From Patescibacteria group bacterium (lineage in GTDB: Bacteria; Patescibacteriota; Patescibacteriia; SG8-24; DYFX01): DNA of 64,000 nucleotides. Both the position numbers and the translations under genes were made by a program. The DNA is taken from positions 20,699-84,698 of the forward strand of contig JBBTWH010000005.1 of assembly GCA_038062835.1 (NCBI GenBank), in the 5' to 3' direction. The notes beneath the pieces were generated by a model. The model searched no databases, was not told where the DNA came from, and saw only the letters and a list, made by a program, of their open reading frames with translations. Below are positions 1,956 to 18,115 of this stretch, in pieces (position 1 is the stretch's first letter; every line of letters begins with the position of its first letter).

Positions 1956-3942
1956 CGTCGATGGCGACGGCCACGGCTACGTCGATCAGGTCGTGCTGAC
2001 CATCGACGAGACCGCCGGCGGCCCCGTGACGGAACCGTCGGGCGACCATCCGCTCGGCCATCACGGCTACATCGGCACCTCCTTGTCGGCCAGGAAACTG
2101 GCCGTGTCTTTCGGCGTCTTCTTCCTGATGCTGGCCGGGCTGGCCGCGCGCGCCGGCTACCTCGACCTCCATAAGGGCGTGGAATACCGCTCGTTGGCCG
2201 AGGGCAACCGCCTGCGCATCGTCTCCGTGCCGGCCGAGCGCGGCGTCATCTACGACCGCAACGGCACGCTGCTCGTGCGCAACGTGCCGGACTTCACGCT
2301 GACCGTCACGCCCGCCGACATCCCGCGCGACGGCAAGGAACGAGCTGACCTCGTCGTGCGCATCGCCGAATCCGTCGGCGTCACGCCCGTCGACGTCGAG
2401 AAGGCGCTCCGCAACTATCCCTCGAACCTCGCTTCGGCCGTGCCGATCAAGGAGCACCTGGAGTACGAGCAGGCCGTGCGCCTCGACATCGCCTCAGGCC
2501 ACATGCCGGGCGTCTCGCTCAAGGCGGGCACCAAGCGCGAAATCCTGCTCCAGCCGGAAGGCGCGGATCGACCCATCATGAGCCTCTCGCACGTCATCGG
2601 CTACCAGGGCCGCGTCAACGAGGCGGAATACGCGCGCCTGCGCGAGACCGGCTACCTGCCGACCGACGCCATCGGCAAGACCGGCGTCGAATCGTCGTAC
2701 GAGACCCAGCTCCGCGGAACCTACGGCCGCAAGAAGGTCGAGGTCGACGTCCTTGGCCGCGAGCAGAAGATCATCGCTTCCGACGACCCGACGCAGGGGA
2801 TGGACCTGACGCTCTCGATCGACGCCAAGCTGCAGGCCGAAGCCGAGCGTTCGCTCAAGGCCTCCGCGGGCCTCAACGGCCGAGGCCGCGCCTCCGCCGT
2901 CGCGATGGACCCGAAGACGGGAGAGATCCTCGCGCTCGTCAGCCTTCCAGGCTATGACGCCAACGTATTCGCGCGCGGCATCAGCGCGAAAGAATATCGA
3001 ACCCTGCTTGAGGACCCCAACCAGCCGCTCTATCCGCGCGCCGTCTCCGGCCTCTTCCCGCCTGGTTCGACCGCCAAGCTGATGGTCGCCGCCGCCGCGC
3101 TGGCCGAGGAGGTCGTCTCGCTCGGCACGACCGTGCGCTCGACCGGCGGCATCCGCTACGGCGCCTGGTTCTTCCCGGACTGGAAACCAGGGGGCCACGG
3201 GACGACGAACGTCATCAAGGCCATCGCCGAGTCGGTCAACACCTTCTTCTACGCCGTCGGCGGCGGCTGGGAGCACATCGAGGGCCTCGGCGTCGCCAGG
3301 CTCGGGGAGTACTACCGGAAGTTCGGAGTCGGCGCGCGGCTCGGCATCGACCTGCCCGGCGAGGGCAAAGGCTTCGTGCCCGACGAGGCCTGGAAGGAGC
3401 GCGTGAAGGAAGAACCCTGGTACATCGGCGACACCTACCATGTCTCGATCGGACAGGGCGACCTCCTCTCGACGCCGCTCCAGGTCGCCGCCTGGACCGC
3501 CGTCTTCGCCAACGGGGGAGCCCTCGTACGGCCGCACGTGGTCAAGCAGGTGCGCTCGAACAGGACCATCGAACGCGTCGAGCCGGAGCCCGTCACGCGG
3601 CAGGTCGTCTCGCAGGAAGTCGTCGACATCGTCCGCCGCGGCATGCGCGAGACGGTGCTTTCCGGTTCCGCCCGCAGCCTGCAATCGTCGCCGTGGCCCA
3701 TGGCCGGCAAGACCGGCACCGCCCAGTGGCGGGAGGGGGAGCCGACGCATGCCTGGTTCACCGGCTTCGCTCCATATGACGACCCGCGAATCGTCGTGAC
3801 GGTCCTGATCGAGGCCGGCGGCGAAGGCTCGCGCGCCGCGACGCCGGTCGCCCGCGACATCATGGAAGCTTGGCTGCGGCCCAGGAATGATGCGGTTCCG
3901 GCCGCCGAACCGGTTGACGCGTCGACTTCGACGAGGCTATGA
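1927..3942 (+). CDS. mrdA: Penicillin-binding protein 2 (peptidoglycan D,D-transpeptidase, elongasome)
   Basis: Transpeptidase motifs STAKL (SxxK), SIGQG-like and KTGTA are present. N-terminal membrane anchor. Follows mreBCD. Confidence 0.85.
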   Translation: MPHRRTLFPDVDGDGHGYVDQVVLTIDETAGGPVTEPSGDHPLGHHGYIGTSLSARKLAVSFGVFFLMLAGLAARAGYLDLHKGVEYRSLAEGNRLRIVSVPAERGVIYDRNGTLLVRNVPDFTLTVTPADIPRDGKERADLVVRIAESVGVTPVDVEKALRNYPSNLASAVPIKEHLEYEQAVRLDIASGHMPGVSLKAGTKREILLQPEGADRPIMSLSHVIGYQGRVNEAEYARLRETGYLPTDAIGKTGVESSYETQLRGTYGRKKVEVDVLGREQKIIASDDPTQGMDLTLSIDAKLQAEAERSLKASAGLNGRGRASAVAMDPKTGEILALVSLPGYDANVFARGISAKEYRTLLEDPNQPLYPRAVSGLFPPGSTAKLMVAAAALAEEVVSLGTTVRSTGGIRYGAWFFPDWKPGGHGTTNVIKAIAESVNTFFYAVGGGWEHIEGLGVARLGEYYRKFGVGARLGIDLPGEGKGFVPDEAWKERVKEEPWYIGDTYHVSIGQGDLLSTPLQVAAWTAVFANGGALVRPHVVKQVRSNRTIERVEPEPVTRQVVSQEVVDIVRRGMRETVLSGSARSLQSSPWPMAGKTGTAQWREGEPTHAWFTGFAPYDDPRIVVTVLIEAGGEGSRAATPVARDIMEAWLRPRNDAVPAAEPVDASTSTRL

Positions 3943-4437: not shown

Positions 4438-5928
4438 ATGCTTGAAGAGGAAATCGTCCGCCGCGAAAAGGCCGCCAAGCTCCGTGAAGCCGGCATCGAC
4501 CCGTATCCGCCCGCGACCGCCCGCGACGCCACCTGCGCCGAGGCGGTTTCGCGTTTCGACGCCTGGGGTGCCGAAGGGAAATCCATCACGCTGGCCGGGC
4601 GCCTCCGCTCCATCCGCGCCCACGGCGGCGCGGCCTTCGCCGACCTGACCGACGAATCCGGCAAACTCCAGCTCCACATCAAGAGCGACGTCATCGGCGT
4701 CCCTTCATTCGAGCTGTTCGCGGAGATGATCGACCTCGGCGACTTCATCGAGGTCAGCGGCACGCTCTTCATCACCAAACGCGGCGAGAAGACGCTGGAA
4801 GTCAAATCCTGGCGCTTGCTCGCCAAGGCTCTCCTGCCGCTTCCGGAAAAGTGGCACGGCCTCTCCGACGTCGAAGTCCGCTATCGCAAGCGCCATCTCG
4901 ACCTCGTCGCCAACGAGGAAGTGCGCAACACCTTCCGCACGCGCAGCCGCATCGTCCAGGCCATCCGCGAGGTCCTGCATCGCGAAGGCTTCATGGAAGT
5001 CGAGACGCCCATCCTGCAGACGCAGGCCGGCGGCGCTTCGGCGCGTCCGTTCGTCACGCACCACAACGCGCTCGACCTCGACCTCCAGCTCCGCATCGCG
5101 CCGGAGCTCCACCTGAAGCGCCTCATCGTCGGCGGCTTCGAGAAGGTCTTCGAGGTGGCGCGCTGCTTCCGCAACGAAGGCATCAGTTTCCAGCACAATC
5201 CCGAATTCACCCAGGTCGAGTTCTACTGGGCCTATGCCACCTACGAGGACCTGATGGCGCTCACCGAGCGGATGCTTTCCGAGATCGTCACCAAAGCGCT
5301 CGGCCGCGCGACCGTCGAACGCGATGGCGTCACGCTCGATTTTTCCGGCCCGTTCCCGCGCCGCAAGTTCTACGACCTCGTGAAGGAAAGCACCGGCATC
5401 GATCTCGAGAAGGTCCGCACGGAAGCCGACCTGAGGGACGCCATGGAAGAGAAGAAGCTCAAGATCGACCTCGACGGCCTCTTCGGCTTCGGCGAGATGG
5501 TCGACGCGCTCTACAAGGTATACGTCCGCCCCAAGATCGTCCAGCCGACCTTCGTCATCGACTATCCGGCCGAGATGATCCCGCTCGCCAAGCGCAAGCC
5601 CGACGAGCCGGACCGCATCGCCACCGTGCAGCTGCTCGTCCAGGGCATCGAGGTCACCAAGGCCTACAACGAGCTGAACGATCCGCTCGAACAGGAAGCG
5701 CGCTTCGCCGAGGAGGCCAAGAAGAAGGAAGCCGGTTCCGGCGAGGCCATGCCCGCTGACGCCGATTTCGTCGAGGCCCTGAAGTACGGCATGCCGCCCA
5801 CGGCCGGTTTCGGCATGGGCATCGACCGCCTGACCGCGCTTCTCACCGGCGCGCACTCCATCAAGGAAGTCATCCTCTTCCCGACGCTCCGTCCTGAGCA
5901 GGAATCGCAAGAAGATGCCCAGAGTTAA
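4438..5928 (+). CDS. lysS: Lysyl-tRNA synthetase (class II)
   Basis: N-terminal OB anticodon-binding domain plus class II core motifs (motif 2 FRNEG..., motif 3 GMGIDRL). 496 aa. Confidence 0.95.
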   Translation: MLEEEIVRREKAAKLREAGIDPYPPATARDATCAEAVSRFDAWGAEGKSITLAGRLRSIRAHGGAAFADLTDESGKLQLHIKSDVIGVPSFELFAEMIDLGDFIEVSGTLFITKRGEKTLEVKSWRLLAKALLPLPEKWHGLSDVEVRYRKRHLDLVANEEVRNTFRTRSRIVQAIREVLHREGFMEVETPILQTQAGGASARPFVTHHNALDLDLQLRIAPELHLKRLIVGGFEKVFEVARCFRNEGISFQHNPEFTQVEFYWAYATYEDLMALTERMLSEIVTKALGRATVERDGVTLDFSGPFPRRKFYDLVKESTGIDLEKVRTEADLRDAMEEKKLKIDLDGLFGFGEMVDALYKVYVRPKIVQPTFVIDYPAEMIPLAKRKPDEPDRIATVQLLVQGIEVTKAYNELNDPLEQEARFAEEAKKKEAGSGEAMPADADFVEALKYGMPPTAGFGMGIDRLTALLTGAHSIKEVILFPTLRPEQESQEDAQS

Positions 5929-9152: not shown

Positions 9153-9240
9153 CGGCAGCCAGGCCCCCGTTCGCTGGCGCCGGGAAAGAGGTACGTCACT
9201 GTTTTGAACGGACGCTGCGCTCACGGGGGCCTGGCTGCCG
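9153..9240 (+). repeat. Structured intergenic hairpin element, family A copy 1 (candidate cis-regulatory RNA or sRNA)
   Basis: 17-bp perfect inverted repeat cggcagccaggcccccg / cgggggcctggctgccg flanks a 54-nt core TTCGCTGGCGCCGGGA...GAACGGACGCTGCGC. The same core occurs again at 28314-28400 with different flanks. It ends about 16 nt before the alr start. Confidence 0.5.
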
Positions 9241-12298: not shown

Positions 12299-12330
12299 TC
12301 CGTCCAGTCCACACAATGTACGACACTCAT

Positions 12331-12360
12331 GGTCCGGATCGTCCGGACCTTTCCGTTTTC
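12331..12360 (+). terminator. Rho-independent terminator-like hairpin after the ftsQ-like gene
   Basis: ggtccgga-tcg-tccggacc, an 8-bp stem, followed by tttccgttttcc. Confidence 0.45.
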
Positions 12361-12368
12361 CCGCCCAA

Positions 12369-12484
12369 GGCCCAGGTCCGCCATGACGAAGCGAGGACTG
12401 TCTGAGGCAGGCGAGCGCGTAATGATGCGCGAGCCGGTGCCGTAGGCAGCCGAGTTCCGCAGCGAGGAATGGCGGGCCTGGGCC
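12369..12484 (+). repeat. Intergenic repeat element, family B copy 1
   Basis: Core CGAGGACTGTCTGAGGCAGGCGAGCGCG..TGATGCGCGAGCCGGT...AGCCGAGTTCCGCAGCGAGG is shared with 17229-17359. It is flanked by a copy-specific inverted repeat ggcccaggtccgccat / atggcgggcctgggcc. Confidence 0.5.
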
Positions 12485-12673
12485 GCCCTCTATTGTGTCG
12501 CATAAGATACATTGTCAGACACATCTTAAGGCGAAATCCCTGACCTGCTCATACTCCCCTCCGGCTTGTTCGATTGGGCATTCCGATGTAGGATGGCGTG
12601 TCAGCGCGCGACGGACGGCGCATGCGTCGTCGAAAATGCCGCTGATGAAGAACCTTGAACGGAAGGATTTTGA

Positions 12674-15689: not shown

Positions 15690-17211
15690 TCAGTCGGTTC
15701 TTCGCCGCTTCAAGGCGGCGTATCACCTTCATTTTACCCAAAACGGACATGATTTCAAAGGGGCCAGGAGATTTCTCGCGCCCTGAGAGGGCGACGCGGA
15801 GCGGCCAGAGGGTGTCGCCATTGCCCCAGCCGTTGCCTGTGATGAGCGATTTGACGCGCTCCTCGGCGTCTTTCGGCGTGAAATCCGCCTCGTCCATCGC
15901 GCCGACGACCTCGAGCAGCGCATCGAGACGAGCCAGGGCTTCGCCGATGGGCTGGCCCTTCCAGCGCAGGCTTTCGGCCGGATATTCCAGGACGTCTTCC
16001 AGCAGGAAGGAAACCGCTTCCGGAAGCTCCGCGAGCGTCTTCACGCGCTCGCGCTCGAGCGAGACGATCCTGCCGATGTCTTCGATGGTCAGTTTCTCCC
16101 CTCCCCGAGCGACGCGCCAACCGTCGGATTCCTTGGTGACGAGTCCGGCGCGCTCAAGGAACGGCGCGGCGCGTTCGGCCAGGCGCTCGATCGGCATCAT
16201 CCTGAGATACTTGCCGTTCAGCCAATCGAGCTTCTCGCGGTTGAAGACGGCTCCGGCGGAGTTGATGTCTTTCAGCTCGAAAGCGTCGATAAGCTCACGC
16301 AGTTCGTAGATCTCCTTCTCGTCGGACGGGTTCCAGCCGAGCAGGGCGACGAAATTGATCAGCGCTTCCGGCAGGTATCCGTTCGCGAGATAGTCTTCTA
16401 CGGCGACGTCGCCCTGGCGCTTCGAAAGCTTGGAGCGGTCGGGGTTCAGGAGCAGAGGCATGTGCGCGAACTGCGGCGGCGTCCAGCCGAACGCCTTATA
16501 GAGCAGGAGGTGCTTCGGAGTGGAAGAAAGCCACTCTTCTCCGCGGATGACGTGCGTCGTCTCCATCATGTGATCGTCGATGACGTTCGCGAGATGGTAC
16601 GTCGGATAACCGTCGCCCTTGAGGAGCACGTAGTCGTCGAGCAGGTCATGGCGGAACTTCACCGGCCCGCGCACGGCGTCGTGGAACTCCGTCTCTCCTT
16701 CATCCGGCATCTTGGCGCGGACGACATGGCGCTCGCCGGAGATGATGCGCGACCTCGTCTCATCCGCGGAAAGCGTCCGGCAGCGGCGGTCGTAGCCGGT
16801 CGGCTTCTTCATGGCCTCCTGCTCGGTTCGAAGCGCGTCCAAGCGCTCCGGCGTGCAGAAGCACGGATACGCGTCGCCGTTCTCCAGCAGCTGCTCGATC
16901 CTGGCGCGGTAGATTTCGAGACGCTCGGACTGCACGTACGGGCCCATGGAGCCGCGCTGGACCACGCTGCCGTCCTCGTTCAGGAACGGTCCTTCCTCGT
17001 AGGAGATGCCCATCGAGGCCAGGGTTCGGAGGATGTTCTCGACGCCGTTATCGACCAGGCGGGAGCGATCGGTATCCTCGATGCGTACGAAAAACACGCC
17101 CCCGTGCTTACGAGCGAAGAGGTAGTTATAGAGAGCCGAACGGAAGTTGCCGATGTGCATCCTCCCTGTCGGGCTGGGGGCGAATCGTACGCGTACGCTG
17201 TCCATATCCAC
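15682..17211 (-). CDS. gltX: Glutamyl-tRNA synthetase
   Basis: N-terminus RFAPSPTGRMHIGNFRSALYNYLFAR (HIGH region). KLSKR KMSKS-type motif present. 509 aa. Confidence 0.95.
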   Translation of the reverse strand: MDMDSVRVRFAPSPTGRMHIGNFRSALYNYLFARKHGGVFFVRIEDTDRSRLVDNGVENILRTLASMGISYEEGPFLNEDGSVVQRGSMGPYVQSERLEIYRARIEQLLENGDAYPCFCTPERLDALRTEQEAMKKPTGYDRRCRTLSADETRSRIISGERHVVRAKMPDEGETEFHDAVRGPVKFRHDLLDDYVLLKGDGYPTYHLANVIDDHMMETTHVIRGEEWLSSTPKHLLLYKAFGWTPPQFAHMPLLLNPDRSKLSKRQGDVAVEDYLANGYLPEALINFVALLGWNPSDEKEIYELRELIDAFELKDINSAGAVFNREKLDWLNGKYLRMMPIERLAERAAPFLERAGLVTKESDGWRVARGGEKLTIEDIGRIVSLERERVKTLAELPEAVSFLLEDVLEYPAESLRWKGQPIGEALARLDALLEVVGAMDEADFTPKDAEERVKSLITGNGWGNGDTLWPLRVALSGREKSPGPFEIMSVLGKMKVIRRLEAAKNRLNA

Positions 17212-17228
17212 TCCACTCTTTATAGCGT

Positions 17229-17359
17229 AAATAGGTCCGAGGATTTCGCGAAACGAGGACTATCTGAGGCAGGCGAGCGCGCGCTGATGCGCGAGCCGGT
17301 TCCCCGGCGAAGGCCGGGGAAGCCGAGTTCCGCAGTGAGCGAAAGACTCGGACCTATTT
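17229..17359 (+). repeat. Intergenic repeat element, family B copy 2 (between tagA and gltX)
   Basis: Same conserved core as 12369-12484. It has an extra internal hairpin ccccggcgaaggccgggg and its own 13-bp flanking inverted repeat aaataggtccgag / ctcggacctattt. Confidence 0.5.
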
Positions 17360-18115
17360 TACGCTTTTCACCCTTTTCTTCAAGACCATGGCCAGGAACA
17401 CGAATGTCGCCTCAAATATGCGGAAAAAACGCCATGGTTCTATGACGAGCCGCCAGAGCCACTCGAGATGCAGGCGGCGCAGGATGAGGGGGGCGCGCCA
17501 GACATGGCCAGCCAGGAAGTCGAGGGTACCGCCGATGCCCATCGCGACCTTCACGGACGGTAGTTTCGGCAGATGGTCGCGGATCCAACGCTCCTGCTTG
17601 CCGTGTCCGAGCGCCACCAGAAGGATGTCCGGCTTGGCGACGTCGATGCGCGTGGCAAGGTCGGGCGCCTCTTGCCACGCGCCGGCGATCCAGCGAATCG
17701 AACCGCCCTGCTCCGCTCCCGCTATTTTCAATTTCGGAAAGTTCAGCGTCAGATTCCTGGCGGCTTCTTCGGCTATTCCCCTCCCCGCTCCGAGCAGATA
17801 GACCGAACAACCTTTTTGTTCGGCGAGACGCGCCAAACGCAAGGTGAATTCCGCGCCCGTCACCGTCGCCGGAACGCGCTTTCCTTCGATGACAGCCGCG
17901 ATGCGAAGTCCGAATCCGTCCGCGAGCGCCAGGTCCGAAGCTTCAAGGATCTTGCGGAATCCTGGGTCGCGATCGGCAAGGACGGACATCTCCGGATTCG
18001 GCGTGACGACGAGGTGCTGGCAGCCATCGCCAAGAAAACCCTCGGCCCGGACTTCGGCTTCCTCAATCGTGACGGGATCGACCGGAACTCCGGCGATCGA
18101 AATACGCTCCCTCAT
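17354..18115 (-). CDS. tagA: WecB/TagA/CpsF-family glycosyltransferase (N-acetylmannosaminyltransferase-like)
   Basis: About 250 aa. IAGVPVDPVTIEEA... N-terminus and DILLVALG..PKQE motif typical of the family. Confidence 0.8.
   Translation of the reverse strand: MRERISIAGVPVDPVTIEEAEVRAEGFLGDGCQHLVVTPNPEMSVLADRDPGFRKILEASDLALADGFGLRIAAVIEGKRVPATVTGAEFTLRLARLAEQKGCSVYLLGAGRGIAEEAARNLTLNFPKLKIAGAEQGGSIRWIAGAWQEAPDLATRIDVAKPDILLVALGHGKQERWIRDHLPKLPSVKVAMGIGGTLDFLAGHVWRAPLILRRLHLEWLWRLVIEPWRFFRIFEATFVFLAMVLKKRVKSVK

Follow-up and report, generated by a model that had tools for sequence, protein, structure and literature searches.

A family of intergenic hairpin elements with private stems, exchangeable heads and an invariant internal loop in Patescibacteria

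The described systems closest in behavior to the elements reported here are the repetitive extragenic palindromes (REPs), with the related bacterial interspersed mosaic elements (BIMEs) and REP doublets forming hairpins (REPINs), and the bacterial transposable elements of the miniature inverted-repeat type (MITEs), such as Correia and ERIC. REPs are 20–40 nt long, carry a conserved 5′ tetranucleotide head (GTAG-type), have stems that are conserved within a genome, and are mobilized by REP-associated tyrosine transposases (RAYTs). Here, we analyzed a 64-kb stretch of DNA from a Patescibacteria group bacterium (64,000 nucleotides, hereafter the window, whose coordinates are used throughout). The window corresponds, in reverse, to positions 888–64887 of an 85.6-kb contig from Hainich groundwater well H41. 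It contains two intergenic copies of an element named family B, copy 1 (12369–12484) and copy 2 (17225–17364), both on the + strand, in which a common core lies within differing self-complementary stems. Related loci from genome and metagenome collections are denoted by L-numbers (e.g., L017). Like the REP/BIME/REPIN repeats, the family B elements are extragenic, non-coding, palindromic, and multicopy, occur in either orientation and often after a stop codon or between cistrons, and would be cotranscribed as stable hairpins; REP-type repeats are likewise believed to act as folded single strands. Like the MITEs (Correia/NEMIS of Neisseria, ERIC/IRU of enterobacteria, and RUP/BOX of Streptococcus), which are non-autonomous insertions of 100–200 nt forming long hairpins, they occur in some relatives and not in others, lie near genes, and may overlap stop codons or supply expression signals. 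Defining features of each group are nevertheless lacking. We interpret family B as a non-autonomous palindromic hairpin mobile element with exchangeable heads, whose invariant loop would be recognized in trans on a folded single strand, and assign this interpretation a probability of roughly 0.55.

Each element is about 115–140 nt long and consists of a locus-specific closing stem, an invariant head, and a variable inner domain, which comprises two hairpins in the Patescibacteria type. The family-defining feature is a two-strand internal loop, 5′-GAGGACUGUCUGAGG-3′ opposite 5′-GAGUUCCGCAG-3′, placed between the private closing stem and the variable inner domain. This build differs from that of REPs in that the stems are private, a conserved internal loop lies in the middle of the hairpin, the length is 115–140 nt, and the core is shared across phyla. 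There is no conserved 5′ tetranucleotide on the stems of the window copies, and no RAYT gene (IS200-like Y1 transposase) was found in the 64 kb of the genome that were searched. The possibility that the core belongs to a known REP family, which the preliminary description of this DNA had named as fatal to its proposal, was not borne out, as there was no Rfam match and no REP-type head was visible. The elements agree with MITEs in being short, non-coding, and multicopy, with filled and empty sites at three loci. The terminal repeats of MITEs, however, are conserved and match a parent insertion sequence (IS), whereas here the termini vary and the center is invariant. Conserved terminal inverted repeats were not found; the nearest approach is a loose GGGYRYGG at the start of some copies. 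No parent element or transposase was found, and the window encodes no transposase.

The comparison of copy 2 with related genomes bears on how the elements arise. Copy 2 is located between tagA and gltX (complement of the tagA stop codon, 17354–17356; gltX start codon, 17205–17203) and, as these two genes are encoded by the − strand, is antisense to both; the orientation of copy 1 relative to its neighbors is sense. The distance from the tagA stop codon to the gltX ATG is 148 nt in the window as compared with 6–7 nt in L087, L088, L089, and L090, whose TagA proteins are 63–79% identical to that of the window; copy 2 is a lineage-specific insertion. The 3′ end of tagA in the window (…AGC GTA AAA TAG) predates the insertion because it is collinear with, and equal in length to, that of the four relatives without the element. 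Positions 17354–17364 are complementary to the final codons of tagA and to its stop codon, so that this part of the stem is older than the insertion. The ancestral tagA end GCGTAAAATAG has an inverted copy, CTATTTACGC, on the far side of the element, which extends the stem by 10–11 bp. The outer stem of copy 2 consists of the tagA 3′ end together with its inverted copy and is thus target-derived. The spacer TATAAAGAGTGGAGTGGAT (17206–17224, − strand), absent from the 6–7-nt spacers of L087–L090, is also new with the insertion and supplies a Shine–Dalgarno-like GGAG just before the gltX ATG. Purine-rich tails like this spacer flank many Patescibacteria copies.

By position, copy 2 could be taken for a gltX-specific 5′ leader or attenuator, as the preliminary description had suggested for checking, and copy 1, upstream of an M41-like gene pair, for a regulator of these genes. 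The overlap with the tagA stop codon and the place before gltX are as described there, but the orientation is antisense. Such a role is scarcely credible, since the four relatives with the 6–7-nt tagA–gltX gap have no element and no leader of any kind before gltX, the core is antisense to gltX, the element elsewhere stands beside topA/relA, groEL, prfA, recA, clpP, and hypD, and no T-box or other leader model matched. As a separate observation, the 3′ end of tagA, where it makes up the stem foot of copy 2, forms a sigma-70-like sequence (17356–17383, − strand; TTGAAG, 16 nt, TAAAAT); this is a consensus match only and, if active, would launch a transcript through the element into gltX.

The other two loci with filled and empty sites are prfA and groEL, and several copies can occur on one contig. 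The prfA and nucleotidyltransferase genes overlap by ATGA in L093 and L094, and an element is found at this place in L017, L038, and L052. After groEL, an element lies between the stop codon and the terminator in L013 and L071, and there is none in L065. The ftsQ locus shows inversion in place: with the same conserved flanking blocks and homologous stems, the head has the orientation of ftsQ in the window, L089, and L074 but the opposite one in L083, which suggests a flip-flop via recombination between the arms. The segments with homologous stems are 1205–1342 in L083, where the head orientation is opposite, 9290–9506 in L089, and 12369–12484 in the window. Orientation also differs downstream of topA between L062 and the pair L009 and L047, where homology between the stems is not clear. 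The ftsQ locus of L087 and L090 contains sequence of similar length without the core, and stem-like remnants are visible in L087; the element has apparently decayed there.

The head itself is exchangeable. At the prfA/nucleotidyltransferase junction, a homologous stem carries the family B core in L017, L038, and L052 and the core of another element, family A, in L095, a locus belonging to the same genome as L087, the closest relative sampled. L095 and L052 have the same stem (GGGTACGGGAGCGCG and GGGTGTGGCAGCGCG, respectively) and the same downstream tail but different heads, and the chimeric head junction in L095 joins TCCGCTC to GCTGGCGCC. The short sequences CGCTCRCTG and TCGCG are common to the bases of both heads. 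Family A had been likened to family B for its conserved core and private stems; the replacement of one core by the other on a homologous stem makes this link stronger than proposed, and family A is the sister head type of family B. The window contains two family A elements, one between the serS stop and the alr start (9153–9240, + strand) and one at 28314–28400 (core on the − strand). Further copies were noted in L035 (~5450–5570, − strand), where the family A copy directly adjoins a family B copy, and in L095 (2887–2976). Family A elements are 88-nt hairpins with near-perfect private stems of 17–22 bp and a conserved head (GCTGGCGCCGGG ... GAACGGACGCTGCG), and each copy lies between a stop codon and a Shine–Dalgarno sequence or ATG. 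Since one head type can take the place of the other on a stem, and since inverted heads occur, neither the head nor the direction in which it points can be what a host would benefit from at any one locus. Insertion, the origin of the stem, empty sites, exchange, inversion, and apparent decay, all of which took place while related Patescibacteria diverged, are together the behavior of a repeated, mobile palindromic element; they do not fit one dedicated to regulating ftsQ, tagA, or gltX.

The two window copies show 77% column identity over 188 columns of a gapped alignment, and the best ungapped segment (repeat family D15) is 55 nt long and 89% identical. The long blocks CGAGGACT(G/A)TCTGAGGCAGGCGAGCGCG, GATGCGCGAGCCGGT, and AGCCGAGTTCCGCAG are identical in both copies, the window has exactly two occurrences of the 18-mer CTGAGGCAGGCGAGCGCG, and a fuzzy two-block search allowing mismatches detected no third family B copy there. 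The two look-alike intergenic copies with a shared core are thus real and in the places where the preliminary description had put them. An 11-nt indel in the shared region rules out a common reading frame, and a small open reading frame (ORF) was also rejected because the indel lengths are not divisible by 3. The folds of the two copies are much more stable than those of shuffled sequences (z = −7.2 and −7.4), and the folding energies of the + and − strands are −77.4 versus −62.0 kcal/mol for one copy and −77.3 versus −69.7 kcal/mol for the other.

In copy 1, the closing stem P1 is formed by the 5′ arm GGCCCAGGTCCGCCAT (12369–12384) and the 3′ arm ATGGCGGGCCTGGGCC (12469–12484), which pair over 16 bp with one G–U pair. 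The 5′ arm is homologous to, yet diverged from, the same-locus stems in L024/L089 and L083. All segments named here are on the + strand. The 5′ junction GACGAAGC (12385–12392), whose final GC is paired to the terminal G of GCAG and the C after it, leads to the 5′ strand of the invariant internal loop, GAGGACTGTCTGAGG (12393–12407), which was located, like the 3′ strand, by pattern matches. The inner domain follows with hairpin P2b (GGCGAGCGCG..CGCGAGCC, 12410–12435), which contains a tandem G–A/A–G and is supported by covariation, and the short form of hairpin P3 (GGTGCC GTA GGCAGCC, 12436–12451). The latter is a 3-bp version of the insert hairpin of copy 2 at the equivalent position. The 3′ strand of the loop, GAGTTCCGCAG (12452–12462), and the 3′ junction CGAGGA (12463–12468, from the alignment of the copies) come next.

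In copy 2, P1 is formed by the 5′ arm GCGTAAATAGGTCCGAG (17225–17241) and the 3′ arm CTCGGACCTATTTTACGC (17347–17364), with one bulge. The outer 10–11 nt of the 5′ arm are the inverted tagA 3′ end, and the inner AGGTCCG is common to copy 1. A further inner helix pairs TTTCGC (17244–17249) with GCGAAA (17339–17344). The two strands of the invariant loop, again from pattern matches, are GAGGACTATCTGAGG (17255–17269), in which G8 is A, and GAGTTCCGCAG (17325–17335). Between them are P2b (17272–17297, covariation) and the long form of P3 (GGTT CCCCGGC GAAG GCCGGGG AAGCC, 17298–17324, folding and covariation). The variable insert of copy 2 is, as first described, a clean hairpin, and each copy indeed has its own bracketing inverted repeat, but the stem of copy 2 is longer than the 13–16 bp originally given.

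The structure is supported by comparison among the copies. The 5′ and 3′ flanks of the same copy reach a pairing score of 12.9, as against 5.4 for flanks taken from different copies (95th percentile, 8). Covariation was tested on a 21-sequence alignment of the Patescibacteria type with a hand-drawn structure consisting of the two innermost P1 pairs, P2b, and P3. In this alignment, 89.6% of the cells pair, and double changes occur in 12 of the 22 pairs (5 of 9 in P2b and 6 of 11 in P3). None of 500 shuffled controls reached the observed pairing or double changes, and pairing fell to 30–40% when the 3′ partners were slid by 1–3 columns. The tandem G–A of P2b is replaced by Watson–Crick pairs in six to seven sequences. 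Covariation sets the register of P1, in which the final G of GCAG is paired to the base preceding GAGGAC, and the pair after it (−2/+1) alternates between GC and AU across the Patescibacteria subfamily. As the loop is invariant, its internal pairing is beyond the reach of covariation; energy minimization suggests a 5-bp GGACU/AGUUC helix with a GUCUGA bulge.

The two strands of the element are not equivalent. The G–U pairs of P1 favor the motif strand over the opposite strand by 11 to 0 in the Patescibacteria type, where they occupy differing positions in differing copies, and by 22 to 6 overall. The motif strand is also the better-folding strand in 43 of the 56 copies. The usual deamination biases would predict an asymmetry opposite to this G–U bias, which is therefore read as selection; we infer that selection acts on the folded single strand carrying the motif.

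The family extends well beyond the window. A scan of the genome collection with a strict core pattern gave four true relatives, L009, L013, and L017, which are Patescibacteria genomes or metagenome-assembled genomes (MAGs), and L024, which is labeled as Gammaproteobacteria, yet is syntenic with the window and has an FtsQ with 60% identity. The label is probably wrong, as judged from this gene content. The record concerned (L024/L089, CAYOJH010000013.1, titled "uncultured Gammaproteobacteria bacterium") shares the alr-ddl-ftsQ / M23 peptidase / gltX / tagA synteny, with proteins 60–63% identical to those of the Patescibacteria window. A metagenome scan with the pattern GAGGACTNTCTGAGG, 35–65 nt, GTTCCGCAG gave 53 loci; in all of them except L057, the core is flanked on its outer side by a private complementary stem and encloses a hairpin. 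Conserved structure around the core was thus found at 4 genome loci and 52 metagenome loci, and the core is not the product of a local duplication only. The supposition that a larger population of such elements exists was well founded, and further copies in this genome are probable. In addition to the two family B and two family A copies in the 64-kb window, a 71-kb contig from the same aquifer has at least four family B copies and one family A copy, and one betaproteobacterial MAG has at least three copies, some in inverted pairs. All relatives were found with exact core-derived patterns, so that diversity is underestimated and conservation overestimated, and most loci are on short metagenome contigs. 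With this bias of the search, the loop varies at only four or five positions, and its 5′ strand shows identity in 65 of 67 matches at all positions but three.

The scans show that the window copies represent the Patescibacteria form of a broader family. In this form, the inner domain P2 is split into the hairpins P2b and P3, and many other loci have a single hairpin of unrelated sequence. Hosts outside the Patescibacteria are represented by Betaproteobacteria-like contigs and low-GC contigs; the former assignment is based on a UgpC adjoining the motif that is 97% identical to the UgpC of a betaproteobacterial MAG. In seven betaproteobacterial contigs (L060, L064, L067, L069, L080, L081, and L043), the motif hairpin lies inside a composite repeat of ~330 nt. 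These composite repeats mostly form divergent inverted pairs 220–300 nt apart (e.g., L069, 1195–1900), P1 occurs in them in a few discrete variants between conserved flanks, and their 3′ module (GGGGTCGCCTTTCTTTG...GGCGAAGCAAAGAAAG) is also present, unannotated, in Ralstonia and Burkholderia megaplasmids. A BLAST search against plasmids gave no match for copy 1, the sole match being the unrelated 3′ module of the composite repeat, and three scans of viral contigs with differing gap lengths gave none. On the low-GC contig L059, a Clostridiales-1 RNA (RF01699, 100 bits; 2715–2885) was found ~230 nt upstream of a motif hairpin (core, 3111–3172).

No conserved neighbor gene was found. The neighbors include topA/relA, groEL, prfA, recA, clpP, hypD, sbcB, and a histidine kinase, and clustering of the neighboring genes recovered only the shared synteny of orthologous loci and no associated enzyme. 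Both orientations relative to the flanking genes occur, the motif strand being antisense to the operon in most Patescibacteria copies (orientation calls beyond the Pfam-supported loci rest on crude ORF scoring). The GC skew at the copies, as a measure of replication-strand bias, is positive in 9 and negative in 19, which is not decisive. Copies lie either 0–7 nt past stop codons and ahead of a Shine–Dalgarno-like purine tract or between a stop codon and the terminator.

This placement, shared by family A, would suit a family of cis-acting structured RNAs between cistrons that benefits the host and gains new copies by duplication. A hairpin after the stop codon might guard the upstream mRNA from 3′ exonucleases, offer an RNase III site, or uncouple or tune translation, and the invariant loop might be bound by a conserved RNA-binding protein. 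Such a role would also accommodate the retention of copies at orthologous positions, where the stems show compensatory changes and the core has stayed the same. We nevertheless consider it unlikely. The G–U-tolerant strand is antisense to the operon in most Patescibacteria copies, leaving A–C mismatches in the mRNA strand; the head is inverted in L083 and swapped for an unrelated one in L095 at the same locus; close relatives do with a 6–7-nt spacer or with overlapping genes; and the core at the ftsQ locus has been lost in L087 and L090.

The invariant loop with covarying stems of variable length, optional hairpins, and no gene association would also be expected of a multicopy small RNA or a new self-cleaving or self-processing motif made from the motif strand, in which the loop of 15 + 11 nt would be a catalytic or ligand- or protein-binding core and the helices no more than its scaffold. 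The occurrence in both orientations, in multiple copies, and across phyla fits such an RNA, as does the confinement of the G–U pairs of the Patescibacteria type to the motif strand. We regard it as improbable all the same, because neither window copy was found to have a promoter-like site upstream on its motif strand, most Patescibacteria copies lie antisense inside operons, and no Rfam ribozyme or other RNA model matched even at E values up to 10. Moreover, the head is interchangeable with that of family A, and catalysis is a conjecture.

The mobile element could spread as follows. The motif-bearing strand would be transferred as a folded single strand (RNA or single-stranded DNA), with the invariant loop as the recognition site for an enzyme encoded elsewhere. 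The long, near-perfect private stems might be maintained, and extended into the flanks, by palindrome-templated copying and compensatory change, and heads may be swapped by recombination at the short sequences shared at the head base. After insertion, the element would be a passive stable hairpin in operon transcripts, where it may influence how stable the mRNA is or how translation proceeds at the neighboring stop codon. Gain, apparent loss, inversion, head exchange, and the target-derived stem are the parts of this proposal that are shown; its single-stranded intermediate, enzyme, and copying mechanism are inferred.

Several observations weigh against a mobile element. Neither the window nor the surroundings of the examined copies encode a transposase, a reverse transcriptase, or an HUH nuclease; the gene tables of the window's contig name ordinary housekeeping genes only, without an integrase, and the mobilizing enzyme is entirely hypothetical. 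The closing stems differ among copies, unlike the terminal repeats of classical MITEs. A test for direct target duplication on 20 copies detected none in general, with a flank likeness of 6.1 for own flanks as compared with 5.8 for mismatched flanks; the only candidate duplication is at the prfA-site copy in L038, which is flanked by GAGGAATGA and GAGGAATAA (8/9 match). The ftsQ-locus copy persists across genomes in which FtsQ is only 60% identical, with an unchanged core and stems remodeled by compensatory changes. Such core retention at orthologous sites looks like purifying selection, as for a functional RNA, although gene conversion between copies could imitate this effect. Furthermore, 26 core nucleotides are near-identical in Patescibacteria and Betaproteobacteria-like contigs, which is unusual for a selfish repeat and may reflect a conserved molecular function; the invariance of the core is partly an ascertainment effect, since the members were found with core-derived patterns. 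Owing to the unchanged core at orthologous sites and the cross-phylum identity, the two RNA-based explanations above stay alive. A bolder idea, which we hold to be distinctly doubtful, is that an undescribed machine of RNA or single-stranded DNA has its active core in the loop, being either a self-processing ribozyme or a recognition module for a reverse transcriptase or nuclease. It would drive an element resembling a short interspersed element (SINE) or a single-stranded DNA hairpin element, whose stem is copied from the target by snap-back and which has passed between Patescibacteria and bacteria living alongside them.

Comparison of the proposed mobile palindromic repeat with other described systems gave no closer match. 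Integron attC sites and the ends of IS200/IS605 elements undergo structure-specific recombination on folded single-stranded DNA; recognition of a folded single strand with strand bias would be common to them and family B, as are variable hairpins with conserved unpaired or bulged features. The attC sites, however, have conserved R and L boxes (RYYYAAC/GTTRRRY) at the hairpin foot, whereas here the foot is variable and the center invariant, and attC was rejected because GTTCCGC and GCGGAAC are outside the core-site consensus. IS200/IS605 elements insert beside a fixed tetranucleotide, whereas no conserved nucleotides abut the stems here. IS200/IS605-derived palindrome-associated transposable elements (PATEs) were excluded by the single nested hairpin in place of two end hairpins and by the lack of a fixed flanking tetra- or pentanucleotide. 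No integrase or TnpA gene was found near the copies. An ISAs1-type transposase gene lies beside the L066 copy, but the hairpin is ~360 nt beyond the gene amid other repeats and is not an IS end.

The element also resembles small structured RNAs (hammerhead, twister, and kink-turn RNAs) in its invariant loop, free helices, optional stems, and patchy multicopy spread, while differing in that no covariance model matches. With Rfam 15, neither the window nor 20 related loci gave a match at the gathering score, and nothing relevant was found at E values up to 10 for both copies or up to 5 for six minimal members. Searches of the literature by sequence string and topic found no description of the motif. 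The loop can be drawn with a tandem G–A next to P2 and a bulge, which we take to resemble a kink-turn, but the bulge has 5–6 nt and an invariant sequence instead of 3 nt. To our knowledge, the loop sequence fits no ribozyme consensus. Hammerhead, hairpin ribozyme, and group II domain V were rejected because GAGC...GUUC is specific to the Patescibacteria subtype and there is an extra bulge. An 11/15 match to conserved region I (CR-I) of RNase P was judged coincidental. Signal recognition particle (SRP) RNA, 6S RNA, Y RNA, and 5S rRNA were dropped after reading the sequence, as were the template and variable repeats of diversity-generating retroelements (DGRs) and DnaA boxes in the TCCAC flank.

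Copy 1 lies downstream of a terminator-like hairpin after ftsQ (12331–12349, followed by a T-rich tail) and upstream of two ORFs weakly similar to Peptidase_M41, in agreement with the context first described. The sequences AATGTACGACAC (12316–12327), upstream of copy 1, and TTGTGTCGCATAAGATACATTGTCAGACACATCTTAAGGCGAAATCC (~12488–12545), downstream of it, are near-invariant in four related genomes. They are partly inverted repeats of one another, and copy 1 is therefore nested in a larger conserved palindrome, which may be an operator or promoter region of the M41-like gene pair. Elsewhere in the window, a non-coding region of ~550 nt (28440–29000) contains several strong hairpins, including 28484–28504, 28577–28625 (followed by T-rich sequence), and 28823–28957; it has no tRNA and no Rfam match. 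A tRNA scan found no tRNA in the window.

Patescibacteria genomes are roughly 1 Mb in size and have almost no intergenic space. Despite this compactness, these bacteria tolerate and long retain 120-nt hairpins between essential genes. The modular build, with a locus-specific stem and an exchangeable head, sets the elements apart from classical REP and MITE repeats, and copy 2 indicates that long perfect palindromes can arise from target sequence. Contig breaks and odd "leaders" in the assemblies of these organisms are explained by the elements, and masking them is advisable before riboswitches or small RNAs are predicted. The 26 core nucleotides, shared across phyla and absent from Rfam, can be used to search for a partner enzyme or an RNA activity, and the core may mark genetic exchange between episymbionts and their hosts.

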